DNA from: a virus
IMG/VR virus record: IMGVR_UViG_3300024999_000002
Reading direction: 5' to 3' (one strand)
DNA length: 64,000 bases
Part shown: positions 3,700-40,900 of the stretch, piece after piece
Numbering within the stretch: position 1 is the first letter of the stretch
How the letters are laid out: each line of letters begins with the position of its first letter
Made by a program: the position numbers and the translations under genes
The notes under the pieces: model-generated
Databases searched by the model: none
What the model was told of the DNA's origin: nothing
What the model saw: only the letters and a program-made list of their open reading frames with translations

Positions 3700-3721
3700 A
3701 GAAAAAATAAATTGAATTTTA

Positions 3722-3753
3722 TTTGGATTATAGAGTATTTATTCTTATATTTA
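3722..3753 (+). promoter_or_regulatory. Host-type promoter for the intron ORF
   Basis: TTTG(3722-3725)-N20-TATATTTA(3746-3753), 19 nt before ATG 3773. Confidence 0.45.
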
Positions 3754-3772
3754 CAAATAAAATTAATAAATT

Positions 3773-4561
3773 ATGTATTTTAATGAAAAGAAAATAATTG
3801 AAGACTATTTAAATGGTAAAAATACTAAGCAAATAGCAATTGAACTTAATACCTACAACACATCAGTTAGACGCGTATTGCTGCGTAATAATATTAGATT
3901 AAGAAGTCAATCAGAGGCACAAGTTAAAACTGTGAATAACTTTTTAGATTTGTCTAATGAAAATGTGCAATATTGGCTTGGATTCCTTGCTGCTGATGGT
4001 ACTGTGGGTAAAAAAGATTTTTTAGTCTCTCTAGAACTTCAAAGAAAAGATTTAAATCATTTACTTAAATATTGTAATTTTATAGGAATATCTTATAAAA
4101 CTATAAAATACCCTAAATATAACACAGTAGGATATAGGGCTAATTTTCGTAATAAAGAAGTAAATTTATATTTAAAGGCGCTAGGAATTACTGATAATAA
4201 AAGTAAAACTATTAAAATAAATTTTAATTTTAATAGACATTTTATTAGAGGAGTTTTTGATGGTGATGGATATGCTAGACTTCTTTCCGAAAAAAGAGGA
4301 GCCTATGAAATAGCTACTATGAGTTTAGATTTTAAAAATCAATTATCAACTTTTTTTAATAATAATAGTATTAAACATACTGTAACTTTACGAAAAGATG
4401 GAATATTTCTAATAGGAATATATACCCAAAATGAAGTGAAAAAATTTTATAACATAATTTATGATAATGCTACAGTATTTCTTGAAAGAAAGAAAGCTGT
4501 TATATGCCCTCTATATGAAGAAATTCAATTAGATGCAAAACTTTCAAATTCGGTGAACTAA
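3773..4561 (+). CDS. Double-motif LAGLIDADG homing endonuclease with N-terminal HTH
   Basis: YWLGFLAADGTV and FIRGVFDGDGYA motifs; paralog of the 22356-23147 ORF. Confidence 0.85.
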   Translation: MYFNEKKIIEDYLNGKNTKQIAIELNTYNTSVRRVLLRNNIRLRSQSEAQVKTVNNFLDLSNENVQYWLGFLAADGTVGKKDFLVSLELQRKDLNHLLKYCNFIGISYKTIKYPKYNTVGYRANFRNKEVNLYLKALGITDNKSKTIKINFNFNRHFIRGVFDGDGYARLLSEKRGAYEIATMSLDFKNQLSTFFNNNSIKHTVTLRKDGIFLIGIYTQNEVKKFYNIIYDNATVFLERKKAVICPLYEEIQLDAKLSNSVN

Positions 4562-13763: not shown

Positions 13764-14894
13764 ATGGAAGCACAGATCGTAGTGGGACTCGGTTTTGGGG
13801 ATGAAGGCAAAGGCAACTTTACTAGTTATCTTTGTAATGAACACAAAACTGAAAAACCTTTAGTTATAAGATTCTCAGGAGGCCAACAAGCAGGTCATAC
13901 TGTAATGTATAAAGGTAAAAAACATATATTTTCTAACTATGGTAGCGGCACTCTTCAAGGAGTAGCCACACATATTTCTGAACATTGTTCTTTCTATCTT
14001 AATACAATGGCTGTGGAGAGAGAGATATTAAAGAAAACTTTTAATATCAATCCCATCTTAAGTGTGCATCCTTTAGCTATGGTAACCACACCTTACGATG
14101 TAGCTTTTGGTAGACTTAGGGAACGTACTGTTAAACATGGTAGTTGTGGGTTAGGTATTGGTACTACTGCTGCTAGACATACTAATACAGGCTTTAAGTT
14201 ACATGCAATAGACATGGAACATAAAGGCATTTTCGGAGTAAAACTTGCTAATATTAAGGAGTATTACGCCGATAAAGCAGCACAAATGGGAACAATTGCT
14301 CTGGATGAGTACATGGCAGAGGTTGATCGTCTTGAACAAGATTACTTCGACCTTATAAACAAAGAACTCTTTACAATCAAGAATAATGATGAGGCCACTG
14401 ATAAGGCAGAGACTCTTATCTTCGAGGGATCACAGGGAATAATGTTGGACAAGGATCATGGGATATTTCCTAATGTTACTTATGCCAATACTACTTCTAA
14501 GAATGCAGTACAAATCTGTAAAGAATTAGAAGTTCCATTCTCAATTAACTATATCACAAGGTGTTATCAAACACGTCATGGGAATGGTTGGATGAGTAAT
14601 GAGAACCCTGTAATCCTAATGAATGATGAAGAGGAAATTAATAAAAGTAATTCTTGGCAGGGAGATTTCAGAACTGCAGAACTTGATTATGATCTTTTAA
14701 ACCTTGCAATTGGAATTGATTTCAGTTATTGTGGAGGTGTAGAAAATACTAATCTAGTAGTTACTTGTTTAGATCAAATTCCAGGGATAGAGTTTGAAGA
14801 ACATAAGATCATTTATGAAATAGATGAAATTTATGAATCTCACTCTCCCGAATCAACAAAGATCAAGGCTCTTGTAGGGTCATTAATGCGTTAA
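13764..14894 (+). CDS. Adenylosuccinate synthetase family enzyme (PurA/PurZ-like), short and divergent
   Basis: GFGDEGKG P-loop, GGQQAGHT, GLGIGTT, FEGSQG, TRHGNG. The GxxTGRRRR loop is replaced by SWQGDFRTAELD. Confidence 0.85.
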   Translation: MEAQIVVGLGFGDEGKGNFTSYLCNEHKTEKPLVIRFSGGQQAGHTVMYKGKKHIFSNYGSGTLQGVATHISEHCSFYLNTMAVEREILKKTFNINPILSVHPLAMVTTPYDVAFGRLRERTVKHGSCGLGIGTTAARHTNTGFKLHAIDMEHKGIFGVKLANIKEYYADKAAQMGTIALDEYMAEVDRLEQDYFDLINKELFTIKNNDEATDKAETLIFEGSQGIMLDKDHGIFPNVTYANTTSKNAVQICKELEVPFSINYITRCYQTRHGNGWMSNENPVILMNDEEEINKSNSWQGDFRTAELDYDLLNLAIGIDFSYCGGVENTNLVVTCLDQIPGIEFEEHKIIYEIDEIYESHSPESTKIKALVGSLMR

Positions 14895-17406: not shown

Positions 17407-18198
17407 ATGGCCTTTGTAGCAAACGACAGTAACAAACAGTTTTTTAGTGAGACTAAACTTTTCACAGGCGTAAGCCCAATGAAAATTGTTGGGATATGCC
17501 CAACTCTTGAAGAACTTAATGAGTTAAAATTCAATTTTGAGAAGGAGCCTGTATACGTTTCTAAAGATGAAACTACTGGTACAGACAAAGTGAGGATTGA
17601 TGTAGTATTTATGAATGACAAAGTTAAAAGCAAGTCTGCATTCTTTCTAGAGAATAGAGAAAGACAGTCTAAAGCTGGAGACAAGTTCGAGATTATCAAC
17701 AATTTTGGTCAGTCCACTTGGGCTCCAAGCGTAGGTGATGCCTTAGAAAAAGTTGGTAAGAACGGTAAGAAATGGTTTAGACCTGAAGGAGCTAGGGTAG
17801 CATTAGTAGGTGAGGTAGCTCTGATTAGTTTCTTAAGAGATTGGTTGAATGCTAATCCTGAAGATCAAGGTAAAATAGACAGTTATCCTGCTCTATTTGC
17901 CGGTAACTTTAAAGAGTTACAAAATTTTGTTAAGATATTAAGTAAAAACACAATATACACACTGTCCACAGTAAGAGAAGGTAAGTACCAAGGAGTCTAT
18001 AATGGATTCTTTGTAAGAGGTCAATTCACCCTTGAAGGTGCTAAGACCAAATTTAGTAATTACGCAAAAGCACAAAAAGATTCGGGTTATCCTATCAAGG
18101 ATGCATATAGTTTTGCTTTCCAACCATACACTGGGGGAGTAGTTGAACCTGATGCTGAAACAGCTGTTAAAGAACAGGCTGACGATCTTAAATTTTAA
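17407..18198 (+). CDS. Possible ssDNA-binding protein (T7 gp2.5-like)
   Basis: Sits between recombination and primase genes. Acidic C-terminal tail ...EQADDLKF ends in Phe as in gp2.5. No direct motif proof. Confidence 0.4.
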   Translation: MAFVANDSNKQFFSETKLFTGVSPMKIVGICPTLEELNELKFNFEKEPVYVSKDETTGTDKVRIDVVFMNDKVKSKSAFFLENRERQSKAGDKFEIINNFGQSTWAPSVGDALEKVGKNGKKWFRPEGARVALVGEVALISFLRDWLNANPEDQGKIDSYPALFAGNFKELQNFVKILSKNTIYTLSTVREGKYQGVYNGFFVRGQFTLEGAKTKFSNYAKAQKDSGYPIKDAYSFAFQPYTGGVVEPDAETAVKEQADDLKF

Positions 18199-19885: not shown

Positions 19886-20464
19886 ATGAGAAAAATTAGT
19901 TTTAAACTGCTAACTCAAGCACAACTTTTAGTGCTAGAAACCAATGCAAGAACTCTAGGTGAGTTAAAAGCAGAGATCAGTAGAAATTCACAACTACGTG
20001 GTAAAATTGCTTTCGGTGAAGTTCAACTTATTGAAAGAGAGACCAAAGCAACATTTGGGGATATTGATGAGGCTATCCTACCTGCTACAGACTGTATCAT
20101 GTTTGTAGTTCCTAGGAAAACTAAATCAGGAGCAATTCTTACAGAATTAGCTGCTATGAGTTTTGTGGATTTAAAGGCGCATGCTGAAAAATTAATGGAC
20201 GAAGATGATGATCTTTGCTTTGATCTCGATGTTCCTGCTGCTGATCTTTATGATGCTCTTTTAGATCATTATGAGAGAAACCCAGAGGTTGCTGAAGAGA
20301 TTAAAGGTCTTGTAGAAGATCTAGTAAAAGTAACTGATATTATCAATATAGTTATTCCTAAGTTGGAGGCTTTAAATATTGAAGAAGTTACAGCTTTAAG
20401 AGTAACAACCAATGACCTTCAAAGGGAAATTGAAGCAGTATCAAGTACTGTAAGAAGATCCTAG
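19886..20464 (+). CDS. Protein with an N-terminal ubiquitin-like (beta-grasp-like) pattern and an acidic helical C-terminal extension
   Basis: Residues 1-82 align by eye with ubiquitin (VLETNARTLGELKAEIS vs TLEVEPSDTIENVKAKIQ; IMFVVPRKTKSG vs LHLVLRLRGG). Confidence 0.45.
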   Translation: MRKISFKLLTQAQLLVLETNARTLGELKAEISRNSQLRGKIAFGEVQLIERETKATFGDIDEAILPATDCIMFVVPRKTKSGAILTELAAMSFVDLKAHAEKLMDEDDDLCFDLDVPAADLYDALLDHYERNPEVAEEIKGLVEDLVKVTDIINIVIPKLEALNIEEVTALRVTTNDLQREIEAVSSTVRRS

Positions 20465-20508: not shown

Positions 20509-21723
20509 ATGATATATTATCCAGATTTTCTTAAGTTTAAAGAATCAGAATTACAAGCACACTTAGAAGAGCACAATAAATTTGTAGCTCCAGGTGGTCT
20601 TGTAGTCTACAATAATGAGATAGCTGAAATATATGGAAGAGCAAAGCCGTACTTGTTGATAAAAACTGAAAATAACAATATAATGCAGGTATATACTTCA
20701 GATGCCCCTTTGCTTACTATAGACAGGTTTAACCGGCTAAAACTTTATAGAAGAACAAGACAACTACGTGGAAATTATAAATTTATGTGTGCAGTCCTAA
20801 AAAGAATAGCACATCAAATTTATGGAGAAAATCGCGTAGATATTATACTAGAACCTGGCGCCAGAAGAATACAAATTATTATACACTATCCCGAAATTGA
20901 AATAACAAATAGTACAGGTACAAAACACATAATCAAAGATTTATATATACGACATCATTTTGTTAACACTGAGGCCATGGGTATACAATTAGCCGGACAA
21001 GCTGCTCTTAAGACTACCTACAGTAATGGAGAAATTCAAAGATCATATTTACATTCTCACATTTCTAATAATGGTCTAGGAAGTTGGAGTAATAGTTTCT
21101 GTTTTGGCTCTACTACATTTGCACAATTTATACAGAATGTTAGACAACGCGGAGAGATGAATCAAGCAGATATATATCAACTATTCTTTGGGATGGATGA
21201 GTATCTCAAGTGGGAAAGTATAGAAGGCACTCCTTATAACAGGTTGAATGATATTATGGAATTTACCAGTGAATCATATTCTGTTAGTTACAGTAATGAT
21301 TTAGCGGAGAAAGCCTATGCCCATGTTGTCCAAAATTTAGAAAACTTTGAGTACAGTATCACTATGCGTAATAATGAAGTACGTATTGAAATAACAACTT
21401 CATTAGAAAGTGCTTTAAGTAATTTCCTAGAAACTTCTGGGAGAAAAGATTTAATACTAAGAGTACATAATGGAAGTCCAGTAAGGGTAGTATCTGCCGG
21501 CAGATCAAATAGTAGATATAACAACACGAGATTAGACTTCACATTTAAAGGTGCAAGACAAGTCTTAAAAGTTGATTATGATCGTGGAAGTCCAGAAGCA
21601 ATAGAAAGGTTGCACCCTTTAAGAGTGTACCCACAATTCTATATTGCAGTAAAAGTAAAGTTAGAAAATAAATTTGAAACTTTCTTAAGTGAAAAACAAA
21701 AACAAACACAACAAGCACAATAA
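20509..21723 (+). CDS. Hypothetical 404-aa protein with an H-S-H...C motif (speculative E2-like)
   Basis: YLHSHISNNGLGSWSNSFCFG (H182, H184, C198) follows a beta-rich segment, reminiscent of the UBC HP(N/H)...C motif. Located between the Ubl-like and JAB genes. Confidence 0.35.
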   Translation: MIYYPDFLKFKESELQAHLEEHNKFVAPGGLVVYNNEIAEIYGRAKPYLLIKTENNNIMQVYTSDAPLLTIDRFNRLKLYRRTRQLRGNYKFMCAVLKRIAHQIYGENRVDIILEPGARRIQIIIHYPEIEITNSTGTKHIIKDLYIRHHFVNTEAMGIQLAGQAALKTTYSNGEIQRSYLHSHISNNGLGSWSNSFCFGSTTFAQFIQNVRQRGEMNQADIYQLFFGMDEYLKWESIEGTPYNRLNDIMEFTSESYSVSYSNDLAEKAYAHVVQNLENFEYSITMRNNEVRIEITTSLESALSNFLETSGRKDLILRVHNGSPVRVVSAGRSNSRYNNTRLDFTFKGARQVLKVDYDRGSPEAIERLHPLRVYPQFYIAVKVKLENKFETFLSEKQKQTQQAQ

Positions 21724-21724
21724 A

Positions 21725-22084
21725 ATGGGTAAACATAGCACACATGTGATAACACCCGCAAAACCATTTGTTAAGAAGGAACCAGTTCCTACAAAAACAT
21801 TAGGTAACGTAGGTAAAATTTTCATTTCTGAGGAATTGAAAAAACAAATTGACTTTCTACATAAGAAGATAGGAAGCATAGAGTGGTCGGGAGTTCTAAT
21901 TTATAAGCATACAGGTGGAGAAATTAAAGACCTTAAAGATCTTGAATTCCACGCAACTAATATGTTCTTAATGGACATTGGTACAGGAGCTTATACTGAA
22001 TTTAATTATAATGAGCAAATTGTAGCTATTTATGATGTAATACCAGAGGCAATGGAAAGTGCTACTGGACTAATTCACACGCAT
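21725..22084 (+). CDS. JAB/MPN (JAMM) metallopeptidase, exon 1
   Basis: Conserved Glu (IEWSGVLIY); ends ...GLIHTH, the HxH of the JAMM motif. ATG 21725 directly follows the upstream stop. Confidence 0.8.
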
Positions 22085-22355
22085 TAAAATGAATGGTGCA
22101 GCCTTAAAGTAATTTAAGGTAAAAAATATCGGATGAACTCAGGGAACGGAGATAAAGTGACCAATCCTGAGCCAAGCTAAAGATTAAATGTCTTTAGAAG
22201 GTGCAACGACTAGGTATTGAAACTAAATAATGGAAAGTTCTTCTAATGGAATAGGAAATGTCTCCCAGAAAGGAGCAGAATATAGGTTTGAGTCCTATAC
22301 TTTCTACTAGATTATTTAGAATATAATATACCCACGAGCGTCCGACATCCTATCA

Positions 22356-23147
22356 CTAGGATGATGATATAGTCTGAACTTTAGGATACTTTAAAATAAG
22401 TTTTTCAATTCCTTGATTAAACTTATTAATTTTTCTTGTTAACTTAAAAGGAGAGTTATTATAAATTAAATAGAATTTATATACTTCTTCTTTCTTAGCA
22501 AAACTTAATATCCACGTTTTGTTAAAAAATAATGAATAATTTTGTAAATTTAGAGAATCGGCAATACCCTTTAATAACTCTTCAGTACCTCTGATAGATA
22601 CTCGAATAGTTGTTATATTAGGATTGTTGCTTACATGAATACAGCCATCTCCATCTAAATAACCTGATATAAAACTTCCATGAAATTCATTTGGGATATT
22701 TAATAAGATATTAGTTAGAGTTTTGGATTTTCTTTGTGTAATTCCTAAATTTAATAAATCATTTACTAGTAATGGATTAGATAATGTAAATCTAACCATT
22801 TCATTATTAGGAAATGTAAGAACTTTTTCACAACCAATTTCTTGTCTAAGCAATTCTAAAACTTCTGTATCAACTCTATTTATTTGAATACCTAGAGTAA
22901 CAGAGGAAGAATTGGAACGTACAATATAACCATCTGCAGCAATAAATCCTAGTAAGTAGGCCTTTGTAGCAGAATCTATATTCTGAAAATATCGTATATT
23001 ACCTTGATTAGACCTATAATATATGGAATATTTTTGCAATATGTAGGTTACGGACGAGTATTTTATATTAAGTTCTTTAGAAATTTGAATGGGAGTTTTA
23101 CCATTCTCTGCTAGAGATTTAATTAAATTATGGTCATGAATTTGCAT
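22356..23147 (-). CDS. Double-motif LAGLIDADG homing endonuclease with N-terminal HTH, antisense to its host gene
   Basis: YLLGFIAADGYI and FISGYLDGDGCI. Same architecture and length (263 vs 262 aa) as the 3773-4561 ORF. Confidence 0.85.
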   Translation of the reverse strand: MQIHDHNLIKSLAENGKTPIQISKELNIKYSSVTYILQKYSIYYRSNQGNIRYFQNIDSATKAYLLGFIAADGYIVRSNSSSVTLGIQINRVDTEVLELLRQEIGCEKVLTFPNNEMVRFTLSNPLLVNDLLNLGITQRKSKTLTNILLNIPNEFHGSFISGYLDGDGCIHVSNNPNITTIRVSIRGTEELLKGIADSLNLQNYSLFFNKTWILSFAKKEEVYKFYLIYNNSPFKLTRKINKFNQGIEKLILKYPKVQTISSS

Positions 23148-23163
23148 ACAAAATTATTTTTAA

Positions 23164-23195
23164 CAAATATAAGAAAAATTTTATTCTAAAGCAAG
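23164..23195 (-). promoter_or_regulatory. Host-type promoter for the antisense intron ORF
   Basis: On the minus strand: CTTG-N20-TATATTTG, 16 nt before ATG (23147). Confidence 0.45.
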
Positions 23196-23224
23196 AATTT
23201 TAAAATATTCTTGATAACAAAAAG

Positions 23225-24088
23225 CATTCAATGGGGGCATTCCACAGTGGAACAGACTTAAGTGAATTAGAAGATAATGCCGGAGTATATAATTACTATG
23301 TATCTCTAGTTGTTAATTTTAAAGAAACTTATGTTTGTAAAATTGCTTTCCCTGCTACAGTAATCATTAATGAAACTAAACATAATGTAAGTACAATAAG
23401 AAACACCGATGGTACAATCATTCCATTTGAAGAAAAATCAGAAAAGAATGAGGAAAGAGTAATACATTATCTAGGAGATTTAGATGTAGTAATTGAATCT
23501 ACTCCTATAGAAATTTCAGAGTGGATAGAAGATAGGTATGCCGAAGTTAAGAAAGCAAAAGAAAAACCTGTATATGTACCATACACATCTTACTACGATA
23601 CTTTTAAAGCTGATAGAAGTGTTATAGGATTTAGAAAGGAGGAAGGGGGTGCAAAACTACCTATACCTACTTACAGACAACAAGCGTTAGGAGGGGACTT
23701 TCAAAGAGAGGACAGCGTCCTTGAATTTGAAGAGTACACCGCCGCGTCCTTCACGACTGCTAGAGAAGTTAGCAGAGATCCGAGCAAAACTATCAAATTA
23801 TTTGTAAATGCCGTAGTCTTTTCAGATTCTACTGTACCTTTAGATATTATTAAAGGGGTAGTAAATTTGAATCTACTGCCTGATGCAGAATTCCAATTAT
23901 ACTTAGACTTATTAGAGGCTAATATAGAAATTCTACATGACAATATTTATGGGCTAGGTAATGTTCATCTACTAAGACACTTAAAAGAAGTGGTAGTACA
24001 TCTAAGCGCTTATAAAAATGCCAAGAGAGTAGGACACATTGATAAACTAATTGAATTCTTAGACGATTATGGAACTCCAGCAACTTAA
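23225..24088 (+). CDS. JAB/MPN metallopeptidase, exon 2 plus a long C-terminal region of unknown function
   Basis: HSMGAFHSGTDLSELED completes the JAMM motif, in frame with exon 1. Confidence 0.8.
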   Translation, partial: HSMGAFHSGTDLSELEDNAGVYNYYVSLVVNFKETYVCKIAFPATVIINETKHNVSTIRNTDGTIIPFEEKSEKNEERVIHYLGDLDVVIESTPIEISEWIEDRYAEVKKAKEKPVYVPYTSYYDTFKADRSVIGFRKEEGGAKLPIPTYRQQALGGDFQREDSVLEFEEYTAASFTTAREVSRDPSKTIKLFVNAVVFSDSTVPLDIIKGVVNLNLLPDAEFQLYLDLLEANIEILHDNIYGLGNVHLLRHLKEVVVHLSAYKNAKRVGHIDKLIEFLDDYGTPAT

Positions 24089-24740
24089 TGACAGATTTAA
24101 AGATGCTCCTTGGTTTGAACAATGCAGCAAGGAGTTTATACTTGTAGGTGGAGTAGGTGGTATAGGCAGTTCAGCAATGTACTGTTTAACTAAGACTATT
24201 CCTTGTACCTATGCAATTATTGATATGGATACTGTGGCTGAATATAATGTAGGCACACAGTTCTTCTGCAAAGACGATGTTAATAAACTAAAGGTACAAG
24301 CAGTACAAGAGATGGCTACTAGATATTCTGCAGCCAAGATCATGCCTTTTCCAAGAGCAATAACAGACACTGATTTTAGGCCTATCACAATATCAGCCTT
24401 TGACAATATGGCTGCTAGAAAGCAGTTGTATGAAGCTTGGAAAAAGCAGGTAAATAGAGAGATTTTCATAGATGGACGCCTTAGGGCAACTATGTATGAA
24501 GTCTACATTGTATTACCAGGAAGAGAAGCACAGTACGAAGCCACACTATTTGACGATAAAGATGTGGCTGATGATGAGTGCACATTTAAACAAACATCCT
24601 TCTTTGCTATGGCAATTGGGGCGAAGATTACGCAGGCTCTAACTAATTACTTGTCTAACAAGTATACTAAGGAAGACTCGTGTGCTTTACCTTTTAAGAT
24701 AACAGAGGTAGGAGAATTATTTTACTTTAACGCAGAATAG
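24069..24740 (+). CDS. ThiF/MoeB/E1-like adenylyltransferase (minimal Rossmann domain)
   Basis: ILVGGVGGIGSS, IIDMDTVAEYNVGTQFF, SAFDNMAARKQL, IDGRL...VYIVLPG. Overlaps the JAB gene end by 20 nt. Confidence 0.8.
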   Translation: MELQQLNDRFKDAPWFEQCSKEFILVGGVGGIGSSAMYCLTKTIPCTYAIIDMDTVAEYNVGTQFFCKDDVNKLKVQAVQEMATRYSAAKIMPFPRAITDTDFRPITISAFDNMAARKQLYEAWKKQVNREIFIDGRLRATMYEVYIVLPGREAQYEATLFDDKDVADDECTFKQTSFFAMAIGAKITQALTNYLSNKYTKEDSCALPFKITEVGELFYFNAE

Positions 24741-24741
24741 T

Positions 24742-25824
24742 ATGGCTTTTAGTATTACAAGAAATGTAAATGCAATGCCCGTAATTTTTGATGGAAATTC
24801 TGCACCTAGAATAGAACTTACTCCCAGTGCCCCATACAGATGGGGCTCTGTGAAGTCAGTCTTTGATGCTATGTGTCTTACTAATACCCCACAACGAGAT
24901 CATGGGCTACATATTTATCATGGATTAACTCTTGATCATAGAGGTAATCCTTTAGTAGTAGTATGTAGAATGTGTGATGGGTCATTAAAGGCTTTTATAA
25001 GTTCAGAGTATGTAGCAAGCAATAAGACCCGCTTAGATTACATTAAACATGGAATCTATAAAATGGGTGTTAAAAGAGGGTGTTGGGAAGAGAAAACTCA
25101 AGTTGAGTTAATGGCAATGTTTACTACTTCGCTGGCGATCACTATGGAAGACTTACTTCCAGAAGGACAGAAAGCAATCAGTAAAGCATTTCTAATGGCT
25201 GAAACAGAGCTTTTGAAACCTAAGTCAGTAGTTATTTTACCAGTGGCTGATCCTACAGATGTATCTAATCTAAGAATTATAAGATTAGAAAATTGTGATG
25301 GGAATAAGTTACGGGCTATAAAATGTTACAAGGACCTTACAGGAATGGGATTAAGGGAGGCTAAAGATATTATTGATAGTGCCCCGGTGAATTTATTTAC
25401 TGGAATTTCAATAGATGCCGCCAGAGAAATCCAAAGATCTTTTGAGGAAGCAGAGGTATTCGTAGCTATAATGGCTATGCCTACACCTCCAAAAGTTATG
25501 GGTATAAAACCAAAGATTACACAGACACAAGCACAATCAGGATGGGGAGAATTCTTCAAAGACCTTGACAGTGTTAATGTACCAACAGTACCTGTTGAAC
25601 CTAGTGTTGTTGAAGCTTTAACTGCAAACAATTCAATTACTTGGAGTGCTGGAGCGATGACAACAGGAGCAGGTATATCTTTAGGTGATGTGACCGCAAC
25701 AGTAGCAAGTCTAAGGACACCGCAAGAATCATCTCGTAATCAGCGCCCACAGTCTAGTAATCTAAGTGAAGAAGAACGAATTCTTCAAGATCAACTAGAT
25801 GCTGAAATTCAAAACATGATTTAA
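24742..25824 (+). CDS. Protein containing a ribosomal L7/L12 C-terminal-like domain (residues about 176-244)
   Basis: NKLRAIKCYKDLTGMGLREAKDIIDSAPVNLFTGISIDAAREIQRSFEEAEVFV vs E. coli bL12 [54 protein letters not shown]. Confidence 0.7.
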   Translation: MAFSITRNVNAMPVIFDGNSAPRIELTPSAPYRWGSVKSVFDAMCLTNTPQRDHGLHIYHGLTLDHRGNPLVVVCRMCDGSLKAFISSEYVASNKTRLDYIKHGIYKMGVKRGCWEEKTQVELMAMFTTSLAITMEDLLPEGQKAISKAFLMAETELLKPKSVVILPVADPTDVSNLRIIRLENCDGNKLRAIKCYKDLTGMGLREAKDIIDSAPVNLFTGISIDAAREIQRSFEEAEVFVAIMAMPTPPKVMGIKPKITQTQAQSGWGEFFKDLDSVNVPTVPVEPSVVEALTANNSITWSAGAMTTGAGISLGDVTATVASLRTPQESSRNQRPQSSNLSEEERILQDQLDAEIQNMI

Positions 25825-31059: not shown

Positions 31060-34000
31060 CTATTCTTGTAACTTCTTACCCATACTCTGAATCTTGTAGT
31101 ATTGGCTCCAATACGGTAGATTCTTACCCCACGCGTTAATTACATCTTCCTTATCTGTGTTATCATCCCCCTGCATATACTTCATAGTTTGATCTTTAGC
31201 AGTTTGAAAGTTCTTATAGATATTAAACACTGGAATTATACTCCCCCTATTTAATATCTGGTCAAAAGTTGCAGGAGAGAAGTAAAAAGTAGTATCCCCC
31301 ATTACCCTATTAAGTGTGTTTAAAGTTATCTTCATGCCAGGACTCATATCATCATCATCATCCATCGCTGCCTTGAGTAGTAGATATAAGGTAAACATTG
31401 CAGAATACATATAAATTTCCATGAGGTTCTTTCTCATGTTTTCCTTGATTAGCTCTATGTCTTTGCTACGTATTCCATCAAAAGCCTTATCCCCCTTCAT
31501 CATAGAAAGATTGAATAGTACTTTAAGTGATTGATTAAACCCTAGTCTTGAATAACTTCTATATCTTCCTTCTACAGTACGTTCAAGAACGTCACTATAT
31601 CTTTTACTCCCAAACCTACTTTCTATACCAGTAGCAGCCCAACTTAATCTAAACTGCCCGAGCATTCTACCTAATATCCACTTCTTTGCCATTTGTGGGG
31701 AATTAGGGTCAAAGTTACCGTGCAGAGTCTTATTTATATCAACTACTTTATTCTTGAATCTAATAAACTCTTTCATCTCGTCAGAGTTTCTAATGTCTCC
31801 ACCCCAATCTTTGTTATCTCCAAACTCTTCTACATTCCATGTGCCATCATTGTTAAAGGCTTCTAATAGAGTACGTTCTTTACCATTTTTATCCTTAATT
31901 TTATTACTAAGCAATAAAGAGGTCATGGTTGTAGCCTTAATGAAAAAGTCACCACTTCTTAATAAGATGTAGGGAAAGTTCTTTAACTTTTCCATGGTCT
32001 TATTTGTAGACTTTGTTTCTCCATATTGAGACTCAATAGCATCACCTATTATATCAAATCTTGCGGCCAAGTTAGAAATCTTATCCAACTTTTTGTTCTT
32101 TAAATTTAAAGCAGAACTTGAAACTAATCCAAAAGCATTTATTACATCGCGTTGAGAAAAGTCTTTATTGCTAGATGCCCAAGTCAAGTTACTTACTACC
32201 CCAAAGATCCAGTTATTAATACCGGAGAACACGTTAAGTCCTAGAGTTAAAGCTTGATTATATCTTAGAAGTTTATCTCCTATCTTAGAAAATACTAAAT
32301 TTCTACCTAATCCTTGAGCCTCTACAATCAAAGGTTGCATTTGTTCATCATACTGTTCTTCAGTTATTTCCCCATTAAAGAGTTTTTCTTCTATAATATC
32401 TCTTTCCTTTTCAAGTTCTTTATATCTCTTTCTCTCTACTTCACTATCAAATAGTTTCTTTTTCATAGTGCCTTCATCATTCTTCTTCTCATTATAAAGA
32501 ATGGCATTAATAGTGTAGGATGTAAGAGCTTTTAAATTAGGTAAACCATCCTTTGTTTCTACAAGGTTATCACCGGCTTTGTTCTTGATTACATCTCCAT
32601 TACTATTTAGTCTTAACTCTTCAGCATTGTCAAGGATACGTTGGGCTAACAAAACCTTATCTTCTACCTTACTCTTATACTTGTAAGTTAAAGCCATTTG
32701 AGAGAAGGCTTTAAGAATTGCGGGCATATTTCTACTCATATCCTCTTCAGCTAAAGGCCTCAAGAATCTTGTAGGAATTTGTTTATAAGGCTTTTTAGTG
32801 TAAGGATCTACATCCACAAATCTTTTATCAAGCCCTTCTTCGGAAGTAATCCCTTCAATGAAAGATTTATGCAACCCCTTTACTATTCCACTAACGCTTT
32901 TATCTAATACCCCATCAACCAAGTCCTTCTTAACTTGCGGTAGGAAGTTATAACCTAGTTCATGTATCAAGTAATTTGGTAAATATGATTTCTGTTCATA
33001 CATAAGTTCCCTTATGTAATTATATACTTCATTTAGTTTTGGATCATTCTCAATGTTTTGAAATTCAGGGCTATAATACCCCATATCTCTACCTTTTTCA
33101 TCAGTCTTAACAGGAACTTCCCTTACATATCCATTATAACTTTGAGTAAAGAAAGGCCTTTCCCCACTTAACTGATCCAAATAGACAATAGGACTGTGAA
33201 AGTTTATCCAAGTTCTTAGTTTATTAGAGTACTCTTCGTGAGAAATAATACCAGCTAATTCCTGAGTATGCATGTCTTCTTCTAATATTGTTCTAGAATC
33301 TAAGTATTTTTGGTACTTTTCAACCGCACTATCCCTCAATTCTTCCGCCCTTTTTTCTCCTAGTTGATCTACTAGATACTTGAAATAAGATTTAGAATCT
33401 TCATGTGCTGCAGTTTTATGCTCAGGATCTGTAAAGAATCTAAAGTCAATACTTATCATATTATCTTTTTTCCACTCCATAAAGTCCTTATAGGCTTTGT
33501 GTGTAGAACTACCAGCATTCTTCAGATTTTCTTTGTAATTTTCAAAAGTACTCTTAGCCTTTGCCAAAGCCTCATCGTATTCTGAAGAATATCTGGTAAC
33601 TAATCCCCCTGTATATTTTCCTGCAGAGTCCTGTTTGAATAACCAATCAAAGTTAGTCATCCCTTCAAACATCTCATCTATCTTCTTAAAAGTATCATCT
33701 ACTTCAGTCTGCGCTCTGAACATCTCCCCGCGTAACCATAGATCTATTTGTTGTACTAATCTATTACCTGATTGAGAGGCATCTATTGCAAGCATACGTG
33801 CAGTGCTAATATCGCTCATCTCAGTTAGTTCTGATGGCAGTAGTCTCTTATTTTCATTAGACATTTCAATAATATGGCCCCCAACTAAAGTCCACCATCT
33901 TTGAAAGATGTCTTCAGAGTCGGCCCTATTTTGTATAGCATTTAAGGCATTAATCATTTCCTCATTGAGGTTGGTCTCCCCTTTAAACATTACACTTTTT

Positions 34001-34980
34001 ATGTTGCGCCATATATCAATAGTAGCCCCAACTTCTTTTAGTTGCTCTGAACTAATTGTTGGTTTGCCTAATATATTCTGTATTTGACTTAATTGCTTAT
34101 TTGCAACGTCAAGTAGGAATTGTGCAGTCTCATTACTATTTTCTCCAGTAGGGTCTGAAGTTAAGATATCAATATCATACTCAATCTCCCCAATTCCAGT
34201 TTCTAAATCTAATCTTGTAATAAGTGCGGCATCTAACTTGTCTTCAAGTATTTGTTTTCTCTCTGCAGAGATACCTGCTTTAGCGAGTTCTCTCTTGAAA
34301 GATTTAATATCTGTCCAAGTTTTAGATAAGGTTCTTTGTTTATCCCTAATCTTAGCCTCTAATTGTACTCTAAGTTTTTGAAAGGCAGGGCTAAGAGTTG
34401 CCATATCCCTAGAAACATCAGGATAGAAATCTATAGTAGTTTGGCCATCAGGACTTATAAGCTTGCGCATTACAAAGATCCTATGATTTCCATCAGTACT
34501 TTGTCTTACTTGAAAGGAAAAGTTAGGACTAAGATTTAATGTCTTAACCCAATCTTTTGTAGACTGACTATCAGGATCAACTTCCTTTATCTTTCCGTTC
34601 TTATTTAATAGGTTGTAATGTTCATAGGTAATCTCGTTACCTTTTAACTCTATTACATCACTCTTATTAAGAGGAGCAGATGAGCCAATAGGAAACTTCT
34701 CCCTAACCTGCATATACCAATTCTCTCCTATCTTATTTGCAGAGAATAGTAAGTCTGAATATTTCTCATTTAATTGAGAACTCTTCATAGCAGCTTCATC
34801 ATAACTCATTGGAACTAGAGTTCTATTATCTGTAGAAACCAAATTTTCTTCTAGGAAGACATTACGTTTGAAAGCTAAAGGATTACTTAAGTATTCCTTT
34901 AATCCTTTAGCCTGTCCGTACTTATCAGTATACTGTTTTAAAACAGGGTTAGTTGTTGAATCTATCCAGCACTTTGCCAT
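31060..34980 (-). CDS. 1306-aa virion-associated or ejected protein (unknown function, C-terminal hydrophobic segment)
   Basis: Uninterrupted 3.9-kb ORF, 1 nt from the upstream giant gene; LMEIYMYSAMFTLYLLLKAAM. Confidence 0.6.
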   Translation of the reverse strand: MAKCWIDSTTNPVLKQYTDKYGQAKGLKEYLSNPLAFKRNVFLEENLVSTDNRTLVPMSYDEAAMKSSQLNEKYSDLLFSANKIGENWYMQVREKFPIGSSAPLNKSDVIELKGNEITYEHYNLLNKNGKIKEVDPDSQSTKDWVKTLNLSPNFSFQVRQSTDGNHRIFVMRKLISPDGQTTIDFYPDVSRDMATLSPAFQKLRVQLEAKIRDKQRTLSKTWTDIKSFKRELAKAGISAERKQILEDKLDAALITRLDLETGIGEIEYDIDILTSDPTGENSNETAQFLLDVANKQLSQIQNILGKPTISSEQLKEVGATIDIWRNIKSVMFKGETNLNEEMINALNAIQNRADSEDIFQRWWTLVGGHIIEMSNENKRLLPSELTEMSDISTARMLAIDASQSGNRLVQQIDLWLRGEMFRAQTEVDDTFKKIDEMFEGMTNFDWLFKQDSAGKYTGGLVTRYSSEYDEALAKAKSTFENYKENLKNAGSSTHKAYKDFMEWKKDNMISIDFRFFTDPEHKTAAHEDSKSYFKYLVDQLGEKRAEELRDSAVEKYQKYLDSRTILEEDMHTQELAGIISHEEYSNKLRTWINFHSPIVYLDQLSGERPFFTQSYNGYVREVPVKTDEKGRDMGYYSPEFQNIENDPKLNEVYNYIRELMYEQKSYLPNYLIHELGYNFLPQVKKDLVDGVLDKSVSGIVKGLHKSFIEGITSEEGLDKRFVDVDPYTKKPYKQIPTRFLRPLAEEDMSRNMPAILKAFSQMALTYKYKSKVEDKVLLAQRILDNAEELRLNSNGDVIKNKAGDNLVETKDGLPNLKALTSYTINAILYNEKKNDEGTMKKKLFDSEVERKRYKELEKERDIIEEKLFNGEITEEQYDEQMQPLIVEAQGLGRNLVFSKIGDKLLRYNQALTLGLNVFSGINNWIFGVVSNLTWASSNKDFSQRDVINAFGLVSSSALNLKNKKLDKISNLAARFDIIGDAIESQYGETKSTNKTMEKLKNFPYILLRSGDFFIKATTMTSLLLSNKIKDKNGKERTLLEAFNNDGTWNVEEFGDNKDWGGDIRNSDEMKEFIRFKNKVVDINKTLHGNFDPNSPQMAKKWILGRMLGQFRLSWAATGIESRFGSKRYSDVLERTVEGRYRSYSRLGFNQSLKVLFNLSMMKGDKAFDGIRSKDIELIKENMRKNLMEIYMYSAMFTLYLLLKAAMDDDDDMSPGMKITLNTLNRVMGDTTFYFSPATFDQILNRGSIIPVFNIYKNFQTAKDQTMKYMQGDDNTDKEDVINAWGKNLPYWSQYYKIQSMGKKLQE

Positions 34981-34981
34981 A

Positions 34982-37900
34982 TTACTTACACTTAAATTTA
35001 ATTTCTTTTGATTCCATCATTTGTCTTAAAAGTTCTCTTTGTCCTTTATCTAGCGTACGCATGTATTCCCCTACTGTCATTCCTAAATCTTGCTGTTCTG
35101 CAACAACTGATAAATCAGCTATTTTATTATTAGGATCAAACATCCAACTTATATCACCTGGATCAGGTCTATTGTATTCTGCTTCAATCATTGAAACCTC
35201 TTTAAAATTAGAGGGCCTATCTGTGCTTAAATCTCCCCTACTTATTAAATCTATTGTAGAAGTTATAGTTGCTTTAAGAACACTCTTATCTCTAACTTCA
35301 ACTCCTAAGAATTCACCTAATTTTAAAAGTAACTCAGCTACAACCTGTTTTAATCTAGCAAATACAGACTGTTCTTCGTTGAAGTCCATTGCATTAAGTT
35401 CTTTCTGAAATTCTGGAGTACTCATCGCCTCTGCAATAAACTCACTTACCTTAGTGTATCCGTATAATCTAGAAGCATTTTCTGGAACTTTAGCCTTTCT
35501 TTTTTCTTCCTTAGCTTTTATTAACTCTTCCTTTAATGCTTTTAAGTCTCTTTTATCATCAGCATTAAGAGATTCAATTGCAAAGTTATGAATATATTTC
35601 AATTTTGCAATAGCTTGTTTGATTTGTGGCGTTAATTTTGAATTATTTGGATCAGTTTCAGATAGATTAATTAATTTACTAGTATATGCGTGTATTAACT
35701 CGTGTACTAGCACCCTTTCAATATCACTAGCAATGACCTCTCTGTTGTGTAAAAACTTAGTACTATTTTTAATTACTGTAGGATTAATTCTTAAAGAGTT
35801 TTCTTCCCAATCAAATTGACCTGCATCCTTTAAATCATTATCAATTTCAGCAGTAAATTCCATAGATAAATAATCACCTTGAGCTGAAAGAAAATCTAAA
35901 ACAGCTTTATAAGCCGGATCAGTAAAGGCCTTCCTCATTTCATTTAAAGCCATAATACCTTTATACCCTCTTGTCGGTATGTAATTTTTAACAGCTACCT
36001 TACCTTCATGGAATGCGTTAGCAACAGCATCATCAAAACCTATATCCATACCATTAAGGGCTTTCTTGGGTTTTAAAACGGTTGCATTATCATCATATAA
36101 ACTAACTGCAGTTCCATTTGCATTGTATTCTTTAACACCTGTAAGTTTAAGATTGGCTGAACCTAACAATGGAATTTGAGTATAAGTGGCTGTAATACCG
36201 TCTTCAGAAACTTTTTCAAATAGTGTCCATCTATTATTCTTACGATCTCTTACAGTTACAAACTTAGCAAGTTTTATAACTATTTTACCATAAGCATTTC
36301 TTTCTTTACGAAGTAAATCACTTTCCTTTTCACCATCTATAATTAATATACCTTTCTTAGCCTCTGTATCTGACTTAGGGGCATAACTAGGATTATGTTG
36401 TAAGAACTGTTTTACAAATTTATAAGTATTAACATTATCAAATGTTCTTAAATTTTGCCCAATCTTTTTAACCACTAAGTAATCAGATGGTACATACTTA
36501 ACAAATTGTACAGCCTCTTGTAGACCACCTGTTAAATAAGCATAAGCCACAAGTTTCTCTCCAAGTTCACTAATCTTAGGATCCTTAGAAGTTAACATAT
36601 CAACAAAGCCTCTGATAACATTAATATCATCAGTTCTTTCTACTTGAGATGCCACATACTTAACTGTAGAAGGTTGTCCCTCTTTTACTGCAGAATCCAC
36701 GAACAGGTTTCTTACGAAAAAATTTTTCCTACCAAAGTCAGTTTTCTTAAGTGCTTCAACTAAAGTTTTTAAAGATGGGCCTTTATCTGTCTCTGTAAGG
36801 AGTTCTTCTAATGTCCAATCCCATCCAAGACTCTGTTGAGTAAACATGAACGACTTTAATTCTTCAAATATTTCTTGTCTAAACTCAGTATTGATATCTT
36901 TAAGATTTCTAAGGTTTTCTAATTCTCCTGTAACTTCTTGAACAGCTGCTTCATTATAAGGAAACAACTGATTTAAGGTGTCATCCACTAAAGCAACATA
37001 CATGGCAACATCTCCAGCTTCTCCATAAAGAGCCTGTTCAGCATTAGCAATAAGTTGCTTGTTACTCAGTCCATCAATTTGAATTCTTTTCTTAGCTATC
37101 TCTTGTAGGTTCTTTCCAAAACCTTTACTATCAGTAGATACAGCTCCGAACACTTCAGATAGTTCCCTACCAACTTCATCTAAGTAACTAAAGTGCGCTA
37201 GTATCTCTAATTGATCTCTAACATAATCAGCTCCATTAGAACCTTTGTTCTTAAGCATCTCTTCCATATCATTTAAAGAGAATGATTTGTTGGTAGTATC
37301 ATATTTTGGAGCTACAGGTTCACCTTTCTCATTAACTGTGGCCAGTCTACTTAAATACTTTTCCTTAAGTAACTTGATTACATATTTGTTTTTATCTTTA
37401 GTAAATACATTGTTAAGACCGTCAGAAAGAGTCTGCATCTCTGATACAAAATCTCTAACAATCTCTTGTCTTAAAAAGAAGGCATTGTACCTTAAATCCA
37501 GAGCTTTACCTTTTTCAGTTTGAAGTAAACTGATTATAATAGAAGCATTGAATGTGGTCATGTTAAAGTTGTTCTTATCTAACTTAGGGTCTTTAGCATT
37601 ATCTACAGCAGCACTTTGTTGTAGAATTAAGTTCTGAATCTTTGTTCTTTGCTCTCCTTCAAACTTAGATATACCTACTCCTGATAAATCAGTCAGCATG
37701 ATTGGGTTTTCACCCTCTCTAAATCCTTTGAAGAATATTCTCTCTTTTATTAATCCATCATCTGTTTTAACAATTTTACATAAATGTAGAGCTTTATCTT
37801 GTATAACAGTAGCACCTACTACAGCACGAGAGTACACACTAACACCATCCTTACCGGCACGTTGTGAGATGAAGTCATCCATCTGACGTCCTGGGGAATT

Positions 37901-40900
37901 AAATAGTTGATCATTAACAATATTGTCTCCAGTAGTCTCTAAGTCTTTCTTATCTAATGGTTCAAGACATTTCTGCATAACCTTAGCATTACTTAGTATT
38001 GACCAGTGAATATCAATGTATGCATTCTGTAGTACCTTTTTAGTTAAGGCCTTTGAATACATTGTTTGGATATCCTCCATAGTAAGACCTCTGTCTTCTA
38101 GTATCTTCTTAATTGCTGCTTTTTCTTCAGCCTTAGTTGGCTCTGCGACTTCTTCTCCCTGCCCTTCAGCAAATTCTGCAGCGGCTTCTTCTAGGCTACC
38201 TTTAATAATACCTTTAGCAGCTTTTTCAATTTCTTTTCTAAGTGCAATCTTACCGGCAAATTGTTCTCTAATCCACTTATCAAGTTCTTTATAATTTATC
38301 TCTCCAGTTTCTGTATCAATTGCAGAAGGAATTTTCTTTAGTTCTCCTTTTTCATTTACTATAGTATTGAACATGTAAGAGTATAACTTATCCACGTCAA
38401 AGTCAGAGCCCATTTGTTTTGTGATTTGACTAGGAACAATGATTAAGTCTCCCATTACAGCAGGTAAAAAGCCTACCACTTTTATAGCTACCTGTGAACT
38501 GTGGCCTTGGTTAGGAATACGAGCACCTATTAAATTAAGGAGTTCTGGATCCACTTTATCTATGTCCAACATTCCTTTATTAGGGCCTTCCTTTATAACA
38601 TATTCTTGTACATCAAGGAGTTCTCCTTTATTGTTTAAGAATTTAAATGGAATCAATACCTCACAATATGATATTACCTCAGGATTTTCTCCTTCAGTAG
38701 TATTTAAGAATTTTAATCCTGTCTTAGGGTCAAATCCTTTAGTATAAACAATACCAGATTCTTTAGCTAGCCTGCTAGGATTCCAAGTCTCTATTTTAGG
38801 AGCCTTGAATCCAATAGAAGAACCTTGGATGAAGGATTTACCAGACATCTTTTGTTTTACAATAGGATTGAACAATGATAACAACATTGACTCAATCTTA
38901 TTAGCACTATTATTAAAAGCTAAAGGAATTACAAAATTACCTTCCTCATTTATTTGAAGAGATTTGATACTATTAATATCCCAACCTCTACCAATAGCCT
39001 CTTCTACAAGAGCCTTCTGGATTAAAGGAAGTGATTTCTTTGTGATAGTAGGTACACCTTCTATGTCTTCAATACCTAGTCTCTTAAATAAACTGTCCTT
39101 AGCCAATCTAAACAATTGTTTTCTAAGTTCATCCTTTAAGTTCTTAAGTTGTGCGGCAGTATAGCCTTTCTTACCTAGAAAGTCAAAGCCTTCATAATCA
39201 AGTATACCTTCAAATAGAAGTTTATTCATTTGAGAAATTGTAACAATCTCTCTTTTAGTTGCCTCATAAGGAACATCTTGTTGGATTAAGAATCTATTCT
39301 TATCCATCTGATTCATGTGTTCAGCTTTGAATTGTAGGTCTTGATGAATATTACCGTCTGCATCTGCAATCTCAACTTCATTAACACCGCCTATCTTAAC
39401 TCCAGTCATGAACACTAATCTATCAACACTCTTACCTTTAACTCCTTTAGCGTTAGTTCCACGTTCCATAGCAATTCTAAGAGCATCTAACCCAACACCT
39501 TTTGTTATATTAGGTATTAATGGGAATGCCGAAGTCTTAATATACTTAACAGTCCTGATACCATCAGGGCCAAAGCTAGAATAAACTTGTACAGGTTTCT
39601 GTGCTTGGAATACTACAGAAGCTTTCTTAAGAGCATATAACTCATTTTGTTCTAAGTTATAGTCATAGTCACCTTTAACTTTAGCCTTGTATATTTTAGT
39701 TATAATAGAAGCAAAAATCTCTTCTGGTATTCTACCATAGTTCATTAAATCATTTAAGTATTGCTCAAGTGTAACTAATTCTTGGGCATCGGTACCTGCC
39801 ACATTGTCATAGCCGAGTTCCTTAGCATACCCATCTACAGTGTTTGAGGAAACATCATCCTTAGCAAATACAGTATTATAAAACCTTTTACCTTTCCATG
39901 TAAATCCTCTACGATCTGTAAATTCCCATTTGGTATTACTTAACATACCGGGAGCAATATCTTTAGCCTCTCTCTTCTGATATTCAGCAAGAGTCTTCTC
40001 AACAGTACCTTTCCATGCCATAGCAGGATCACCTAGTATAGTTTGCATCATACTAGTGGTTGTTAAGAAGTAGTTAACATTGTAATCAGCGGCAACAAAA
40101 GCTAAAAGAGCTTCCCCTTGTAATCCTTGGCCGTATTTATCTACATACTTTTGATTAAAAGGAGTAGTATATTTAATAGGCTTACCTTCAGCTATCTCTT
40201 GTGGAGTCTGTTCTACTTCAGTGGCTAAACCTGATTCTTTCATGTAGTCGATAGAAGTGTTAATCATCTTAGCAACTTCTTCTGCAACTACAGCCTCAAG
40301 TGTAAGTAGGCCTTCACCTTGAAGTAAATCATAATTCATTACTCCATTCTTTCTAACTACATTATTTAAAGCTGGGAAGTGGAAGAAGTATTGACTACCT
40401 TCATAATACTTACCATAATTATCTTTCATCCATTTAACAGCCTTTTCTTTATCTTCAAACTCTTTTATTTTAGAATCTAATATAGAGTTGACTTTTAGCA
40501 TTCTGTCTGCTTCTCCCTTAACCACATTCATGAATCTAGCTAATAGTCTTGCAGAGATTGATTCAGCTGTAACTTTACCATCTACAAACTTTGTAGAGTC
40601 AATACCTAATTTACCATCACTAAATCTTATTCTAGGCGCTTTAATCATAAGAGATGTAGACTTATCAGATTTAGTTAAATCTACAATAAACATCTCGTCA
40701 TTACCATTATTAAAGAATCTACTTAATGTGTCAAGCATTAATTCCCTTTTAGACATATCAGATTTAGTAATACCTTCTTTACCTCTAGCTTGCTGACGCA
40801 TACCGTCAACATATTCTATAGCAAGTACCTCTAATAATTTAGGAGTATAATCCGGATCTAACCATAATGATCTTGAGGAATATGAGTCTAATTTTAAAAG

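Follow-up and report, generated by a model that had tools for sequence, protein, structure and literature searches.

The 64,000-nucleotide (nt) stretch of viral DNA analysed here (IMG/VR record IMGVR_UViG_3300024999_000002; hereafter the window) derives from a divergent crAss-like phage, whose 1228-amino-acid (aa) structural protein matches crAss-like phages only. An 11-kb megablast query found no match among GenBank phages. Phages of this group rank with the most abundant viruses in the human gut. At positions 24742-25824 of its plus strand, the window carries an intact open reading frame (ORF), gene X, with a 360-aa product. The sequence and the predicted fold of this product confirm that it contains a well-preserved C-terminal domain (CTD) of the ribosomal stalk protein bL12 (L7/L12). 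Gene X comes fifth in a cassette that also encodes an E1-like adenylating enzyme, a JAB/MPN metalloprotease, and candidates for a ubiquitin-like (Ubl) and an E2-like protein. In the phage cr126_1, a bL12 CTD entered the same cassette a second time, in a different subunit. Judging from sequence and modelling, the likeliest of the roles considered for the CTD, with a probability of about 0.4, would be that of a tethered bait which links the cassette to translational GTPases or to the ribosome. That bL12 domains can be embedded in phage proteins is already known (Mizuno et al. 2019, PMC6375957). What appears to be new is the X family, its place in a conserved crAss-like E1/JAB cassette, and the recurrent insertion into a different subunit.

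The bL12 domain of X and its insertion into the X family

Protein X is composed of an N-terminal domain (N-domain), a Pro-rich linker, the bL12 CTD, a disordered tail, and a C-terminal acidic helix. The CTD lies within the linker at residues ~176-246 (25267-25479, plus strand). It matches Pfam Ribosomal_L12 (PF00542) with 47.9 bits and E=1.8e-12, the gathering cut-off being 25.9 bits, and residues 181-237 cover positions 4-60 of the 67-position profile; the only other Pfam match in X is a weak one to DUF6793. A phmmer search against all PDB chains yielded bL12 proteins only, with the CTD of E. coli L7/L12 at the top (E=3e-9) and residues 182-241 of X aligned to it without a gap. An AlphaFold2 (AF2) model of residues 167-253 has a beta-alpha-alpha-beta-alpha-beta topology with a predicted local distance difference test (pLDDT) score of 84.2 and a predicted template modelling (pTM) score of 0.71. 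In a Foldseek comparison of this model with the PDB, the best match turned out to be 1ctf, with a target-normalised template modelling (TM) score of 0.92, a root-mean-square deviation (rmsd) of 0.9 Å and 38% identity. The preliminary description of this stretch, made from the letters alone, had recognised a bL12 CTD here, and both the profile search and the structure prediction bear it out. Further bL12 CTDs rank below 1ctf, followed by ClpS, the N-degron adaptor of ClpAP (~9% identity, TM ~0.7, probability 1.0). ClpS has the same alpha/beta fold as the X CTD, but the motif in the X sequence is unmistakably a bL12 one; given likeness at the level of the fold only and no Pfam ClpS match, ClpS was ruled out.

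The CTD of X and that of bacterial bL12 (37-38% identity) have in common the LTGxGLKEAKDxxxSAP core and attachment by a flexible tether. Bacterial bL12, however, is a protein of ~120 aa with an N-domain and a hinge, and it is expressed from a ribosomal operon, whereas in X the CTD is preceded by an unrelated N-domain and followed by a long tail, and the gene is located in the replication-gene region of a phage. The dimerisation/L10-binding N-terminal domain of bL12, which the preliminary description had reported as absent, was not found in X by Pfam (no PF16320-type match), and with 44.2 bits X stays under the cut-off of 84.4 set for TIGR00855, the equivalog of full-length bL12. Since the N-terminal domain is missing, X was ruled out as a genuine phage-encoded bL12. 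The same finding bears on a possible alternative stalk protein, in which X would replace bL12 in host ribosomes; viral ribosomal proteins have been suggested to act in this way. Mizuno et al. (PMC6375957) did detect a single peptide from a bL12-domain protein of a phage in 70S preparations. Tagged viral bL12, however, proved to be unusable for ribosome purification (PMC6375957), and X has no domain for dimerisation or L10 binding, so that such a replacement is very improbable.

The face of the CTD that binds translation factors is largely kept. K65, I69, K70, T76, G77, G79, L80, E82, A83, K84 and D85 of E. coli bL12 are identical in X, as are S89, A90 and P91; the substitutions V66L, R73K and K81R are conservative. 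In the bL12 CTD, EF-G touches V66-V68, K70, L80 and E82 on helices 4 and 5 through its G' domain (PMC5887453). Among these contacts, K70, L80 and E82 are identical in X, V66 is replaced by leucine, and the remaining two differ (A67R and V68A). Because the factor-binding face is retained, binding of translational GTPases by the X CTD is plausible as far as the sequence goes. An intact fold and binding face combined with the loss of the ribosome-anchoring N-domain would also suit a free decoy, that is, a CTD which competes with ribosomal bL12 and either titrates translational GTPases, thereby damping host translation, or absorbs host defence effectors docking on bL12 (such as stalk-captured RNases), independently of the enzymology of the cassette. 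In line with this, the CTD model matches a bL12 CTD chain (8phj_W) from PDB entry 8phj, which shows the CRISPR-associated effector Cami1 on the 70S ribosome. Other crAss-like phages also encode small stand-alone CTD proteins, such as the 141-aa protein of cr50_1. On the other hand, stoichiometric titration of very abundant factors demands very high expression, and fusion to a cassette subunit is unnecessary for a decoy, yet it happened twice in this cassette. We therefore regard a free decoy as rather unlikely.

The history of the domain can be followed by comparison with the allele found at the related locus L001. The ratio of nonsynonymous to synonymous substitution rates (dN/dS) is 0.30-0.40 for the CTD, as estimated from a small number of codons, 0.22 for the N-domain and 0.82 for the tail. 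By this measure the CTD is under purifying selection: although ~30% of its residues differ between the two alleles, the core motif and the fold are preserved. The nucleotide identity is 93-100% across the JAB gene, the E1 gene and the X N-domain and declines to 73-78% over a segment that coincides with the CTD (25250-25520). It returns to 93-99% on the 3' side of the CTD, drops again in the tail, where there is also an indel, and reaches 96-98% at the C-terminal helix. The dS of the CTD, from the same few codons, is 0.55-0.65 vs. 0.13 for the N-domain, a 4-5x difference. Together with the sharp local drop in identity, this points to a CTD module swapped by recombination among diverged alleles rather than to simple relaxation. 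Such a divergence hot spot is typical of arms-race or mosaic loci and in that respect would agree with a free decoy as well. A second hot spot relative to L001 is present inside the E1 gene (24305-24484, plus strand), with 74-84% nucleotide identity between flanks of 91-99%.

Outside the CTD, X represents a family of its own. The N-domain (residues 1-175; 24742-25266, plus strand), a separate conserved domain with the core LDYIKHGIYKxGVKRG that also occurs in CTD-less homologues, gave no Pfam or PDB match in profile searches. A full-length AF2 model from a six-sequence alignment had a mean pLDDT of 43, with no more than 57-80 over residues 60-130, and gave noise only in Foldseek against the PDB (all E > 0.5). 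The complete architecture is rare: among 5.8 billion proteins there are just two 90%-identity clusters, P0001, which is more or less the window protein itself, and P0002, which is 76% identical. An exhaustive HMMER/phmmer search with residues 1-178 found P0003-P0005 (E 1e-24 to 8e-8), and a profile search added P0006; all four are devoid of the CTD. These homologues, 252-320 aa in length, keep the N-domain, a [WF]xx[FY]F-acidic motif and a C-terminal acidic amphipathic helix. More N-domain homologues of ~170 aa were detected by a local hidden Markov model (HMM) immediately 3' of E1 in IMG/VR loci. In X, the motif takes the form W-x-x-F-F-K-D-x-D at residues 268-277 (25543-25572, plus strand), 3' of the CTD insertion point; a regular-expression scan finds it in the window protein and in P0001-P0006, and its DNA is 93-99% identical to that of L001. 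The surrounding P/S/T/Q-rich tail (25480-25761, plus strand) is probably disordered (pLDDT <40) and evolves almost neutrally (dN/dS 0.82); compared with L001, it differs by an indel of 24 codons and is 54-75% identical in nucleotide sequence. The C-terminal acidic amphipathic helix, EEERILQDQLDAEIQNMI (25762-25821, plus strand; helix 343-359, pLDDT ~78), is in turn 96-98% identical to L001 at the nucleotide level and is matched by similar C-termini in P0003-P0006.

The CTD thus splits the Pro-rich linker, with the N-domain on one side and the WxxFF motif on the other. Since the CTD-less homologues keep the N-domain, the motif and the C-terminal helix on either side, the CTD is an insertion specific to this lineage, which entered a flexible tether. 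The GC content of the CTD at third codon positions (GC3) is 0.27 and matches that of the neighbouring genes, which argues against a recent import. A recent transfer from host rplL was ruled out by this full amelioration and by the lack of any close cellular relative among the matches found. A CTD scan of genome contigs gave no match and hence no candidate donor, and IMG/VR pattern scans with a narrow five-sequence X N-domain profile and with the CTD alone gave no matches. A word-indexed protein search with the CTD alone returned a single unrelated membrane protein of 141 aa (P0007). P0007 is of bacterial type and combines an N-terminal transmembrane helix with two half-CTD motifs, AIKxxRExTGxGLxEAKDxVD, which suggests that the helix 4-5 sub-motif of bL12 has been reused outside ribosomal proteins.

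These data also bear on neutral domain capture, according to which illegitimate recombination carried the CTD as a passenger into a disordered linker that tolerates it, where it performs no particular function. The insertion site is indeed a Pro-rich, indel-prone linker, the CTD is confined to the P0001 and P0002 lineage among the 5.8 billion proteins and is absent from 80 other cassettes, and bL12 domains are scattered over many phage contexts. A passenger, however, would hardly be expected to show a dN/dS of 0.3-0.4 and to retain its core motif and fold between alleles as different as those compared here. The fully ameliorated GC3 means that the insertion is not recent, and an independent second insertion occurred in the same cassette, in cr126_1. 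Neutral capture seems to us improbable.

The conserved cassette and a second bL12 insertion

Gene X is tightly coupled to the E1 gene, as the preliminary description had stated: the E1 stop codon TAG occupies 24738-24740 and the ATG of X begins at 24742, leaving a gap of 1 nt. Relatives of the window E1 are encoded by 452 IMG/VR stretches, 80 of which were compared, and 94 loci were analysed in total. The gene order turned out to be constant in all related loci: the products of the first three genes measure ~190-290 aa, ~400 aa and ~400 aa (the JAB metalloprotease), and E1 and a fifth gene follow. About 90 loci of crAss-like phages contain the five-gene cassette, which sits in the replication-gene region; annotated relatives of E1 occur in FpV4-type Flavobacterium phages and in Steigviridae crAss-like phages. 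Homologues of gene 1 and gene 2 upstream of E1 number 88 and 91 ORFs, respectively. The flanks of the cassette vary while the block itself stays together, the gene for uracil-DNA glycosylase (UDG) being upstream in FpV4 and downstream in Steigviridae. In almost all of the 94 loci, a gene of 95-434 aa begins within ~30 nt of the E1 stop, and the gene 3' of E1 is syntenic in L001, L003, L004, L006 and L008. An iterative HMM search, which is open to profile drift, united 68 of 92 E1-downstream products with the X family, including gp49 of FpV4 and the Steigviridae proteins; the fifth-gene product of cr106_1 joined at iteration 2 (E 4e-5). A single-step hhalign comparison of X with the Steigviridae and FpV4 fifth genes was not significant (E 0.06-0.36).

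A Foldseek search of viral predicted structures with the CTD model revealed a 308-aa protein of cr126_1 (Kolpuevirus hominis), annotated as "bL12 C-terminal domain-containing protein" (YP_010111725.1; UniProt/BFVD A0A7M1RYT6). This protein is the product of cassette gene 1, the Ubl-like one. It matches PF00542 with 46.4 bits over residues 158-220, and a flexible linker, followed by a conserved acidic helix at the C-terminus, holds the CTD. Gene 1 of Kolpuevirus 'frurule' is devoid of the CTD, while being ~90% identical to that of cr126_1 over the Ubl-like domain and similar at the C-terminus. Both phages, the one in the window and cr126_1, therefore have the same cassette and a linker-inserted CTD, but the latter bears it in the Ubl-like subunit instead of the fifth gene product. 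The two CTDs are only 22-26% identical to each other, whereas each shows 36-38% identity to E. coli bL12 and 30-48% to full-length bL12 proteins of phages. Because each is closer to genuine bL12 than to the other, they represent separate acquisitions. These identities show that the cassette gained a bL12 CTD twice, independently and in different subunits. As a sign of a functional link between domain and cassette, the double insertion is suggestive, not conclusive.

The presence of the CTD in two different cassette subunits may also be read as substrate mimicry. Host bL12 would then be the target of the cassette, and the CTD would act in cis as a pseudo-substrate or regulator, or would offer a handle by which enzymes are recruited. 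The lysine-rich surface of the CTD is conserved, as would suit such a role, but nothing points to conjugation by the cassette or to modification of bL12, and gene 2 is no more than an E2-like candidate. This possibility is more doubtful still than neutral capture.

Mizuno et al. 2019 (PMC6375957) described phage proteins that embed a bL12 domain in variable positions, have CTD-less homologues and result from repeated acquisition, with examples in the N4-like phages FSL SP-058/076, Ea9-2 and others. The authors suggested that these domains offer interfaces for translation factors. X fits the pattern, being phage-encoded and a larger polypeptide with CTD-less flank homologues (P0003-P0006). The flanks of the proteins described by Mizuno et al., however, are unrelated to X, no phage match being found outside the X CTD, and neither membership in an E1/JAB cassette nor a CTD acquired twice in one cassette was reported there. 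In the 15 IMG/VR loci bearing bL12-like motifs, no cassette genes were found (0/15). Four large-phage IMG/VR contigs of 102-321 kb (L014-L017) encode complete bL12 homologues (116-122 aa), in which the N-terminal domain is present alongside the CTD; they contain an EAKDIIDSAP/EAKDIVDSAP-type stretch as in the window CTD and show 36-48% identity, although the scan pattern is biased toward such sequences. In cr50_1 (Suoliviridae; L030), the stand-alone 141-aa protein (35585-36010; BFVD A0A7M1RVW0) matches the bL12 CTD in part (local HMM, E 5e-11). Its gene adjoins that of a 'ribosomal protein-like protein' (36013-36234), with an annotated tmRNA in the region and no E1 cassette nearby.

Candidate role of the tethered domain

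In the role that we propose, X would be a fast-evolving fifth subunit, an accessory or adaptor of a Ubl-like / Cys-His / JAB / E1 cassette. Entry of a complete bL12 CTD into its Pro-rich linker in this lineage has produced a stalk-like CTD on a flexible tether that cannot be anchored through an L10-binding N-domain. The CTD may serve as a bait for host translational GTPases (EF-Tu, EF-G, IF2, RF3), or may dock at the GTPase-associated centre or uL11. In this way the cassette enzymes would be supplied with targets, or the cassette itself would be guided to the translation machinery, possibly for Ubl-type modification or processing in the course of host takeover or counter-defence. The bait role is supported by the domain and fold match, the retained binding face, purifying selection, conserved membership in the cassette, and the second independent insertion. 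The suggestion in the preliminary description that the protein is connected with adjacent Ubl machinery is upheld in part: the conservation of the cassette and the CTD of cr126_1 speak for it, while the Ubl and E2 identities are only suggestive.

Several observations weigh against the bait role. An isolated bL12 CTD binds translation factors weakly, and the EF-G contact positions A67 and V68 are altered in X. None of the 80 IMG/VR cassettes compared has a CTD within 6.5 kb of E1, so the domain must be dispensable for the core function of the cassette. Two CTDs within a five-gene block of a ~100-gene genome would be expected by chance in ~5% of cases on a per-gene basis, a figure that rises if linker-rich proteins are favoured targets of insertion. 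Many phage proteins that are not related to each other contain bL12 domains, and a disordered linker can accommodate an insertion. Finally, the Ubl and E2 identities of genes 1 and 2 are not backed by a significant match in Pfam, PDB or PADLOC.

A bolder version of the bait role assumes that the cassette is a previously undescribed Ubl-type conjugation or processing system directed at host translation, with the CTDs, in X here and in the Ubl-like protein of cr126_1, as substrate-recruiting modules that reveal its target, be it translational GTPases or the GTPase-associated centre of the ribosome; from the sequences at hand we hold this to be unlikely. At present the E1/JAB cassette genes are annotated as "ThiF" and "metalloprotease domain" only, and no paper linking Crassvirales to ThiF or treating the cassette as a Ubl-type system was found in the published literature. 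A stalk domain grafted twice on different subunits provides the first concrete and testable clue to the target of the cassette. It also places viral bL12 domains, so far known as scattered among unrelated proteins, in a defined enzymatic setting. Should the link between domain and cassette hold, this would be a phage that employs ubiquitin-like chemistry on the translation machinery of its host or in concert with it.

Cassette genes and other features of the window

The four genes upstream of X lie on the plus strand. Gene 1 (19886-20464) encodes a Ubl-like domain of ~80 aa ending in K-S-G (residues 80-82), which is followed by a variable acidic extension; the Gly is invariant in 28/28 diverse homologues. 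Its PDB matches are sub-threshold, but all are ubiquitin-fold domains: the DWNN domains of Mpe1 (E 0.12) and RBBP6 (E 0.15) and a viral ubiquitin (E 0.38). Gene 2 (20509-21723) encodes a 404-aa protein with the invariant Y-x-H-S-H ... C-x-G ... W-E-S-x-E-G-x-P-Y signature and is the E2-like candidate. Genes 1 and 2 gave no significant match in Pfam, PADLOC, NCBIfam and PDB profile searches. The E1-like enzyme (24069-24740), a 223-aa member of the ThiF family, matches Pfam ThiF (PF00899) with 46.5 bits at a cut-off of 28.1, and its motifs GxGGxG, DNxxxR and C-x2-KQT are invariant. As judged from these matches and motifs, the E1 and JAB assignments are well supported, whereas those of the Ubl-like gene 1 and of gene 2 are suggestive.

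The JAB/MPN metalloprotease gene is interrupted within its HxHx7SxxD motif by a group I intron of 1140 nt (22085-23224; Rfam RF00028, 63.5 bits, E 3e-15). Its boundaries were placed by aligning the locus with the L001 allele, which has no intron; T is the last base of the 5' exon and G that of the intron. Exon 1 (21725-22084) ends with ...GLIHTH, and exon 2 (23225-24088) begins with HSMGAFHSGTD... and continues into a C-terminal region of ~270 aa. Once the intron is removed, the JAB motif E...HxHx7SxxD is intact (HTHHSMGAFHSGTD), as it is in the L001 allele. The spliced window protein scores 19 bits against Pfam Prok-JAB (cut-off 25) and the Kolpuevirus homologue 25.1 bits. Inside the intron there is an ORF for a LAGLIDADG homing endonuclease on the minus strand (22356-23147; Pfam LAGLIDADG_3 and LAGLIDADG_1). 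The intron also has a weak Rfam tRNA-like match (22232-22306, plus strand; 31.4 bits, gathering cut-off 29), where ARAGORN calls no tRNA.

In its composition the cassette resembles prokaryotic Ubl/E1/E2/JAB operons (class 6d of Iyer et al. 2006, the defence systems Bil and CBASS Cap2/Cap3, and the PRTRC cassette), with which it shares an E1-like adenylase, a JAB protein, a small Gly-ending protein and additional fast-evolving proteins that are uncharacterised. No bL12 domain has been described in those operons, however, and the cassette of the window is phage-encoded and located in a replication module. Membership in Bil was rejected as below threshold, since PADLOC gave only a BilD match of 15.5 bits and no BilA, BilB or BilC match. 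Membership in PRTRC was likewise rejected, with PRTRC ThiF at 33.6 bits vs. a cut-off of 144.75 and no PRTRC A-F matches in NCBIfam.

Several further features were noted. A 263-aa protein encoded upstream of the primase (17407-18198, plus strand) ends with ...ADDLKF, a C-terminus that resembles the acidic C-terminal tip DDDIPF of single-stranded DNA-binding protein (SSB). The same tip is resembled by the C-terminus ...EDLPF of FpV4 gp49, the fifth cassette gene of that phage (L009, 6675-7763). Two giant ORFs stand back to back on the minus strand, one of 3895 aa (34982-46669) and one of 1306 aa (31060-34980), the latter without a PHROG match. A 419-aa ORF (2524-3783, plus strand) matches only positions 667-1015 of the 1445-position DNA polymerase profile phrog_17, and, given this partial match, the DNA polymerase gene may be split or interrupted. 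A PurZ-like adenylosuccinate synthetase is encoded at 13764-14894 on the plus strand (phrog_1211, E 6e-54) and also in L004 (1554-2666). The presence of this gene suggests that the phage may replace adenine with 2-aminoadenine in its DNA.

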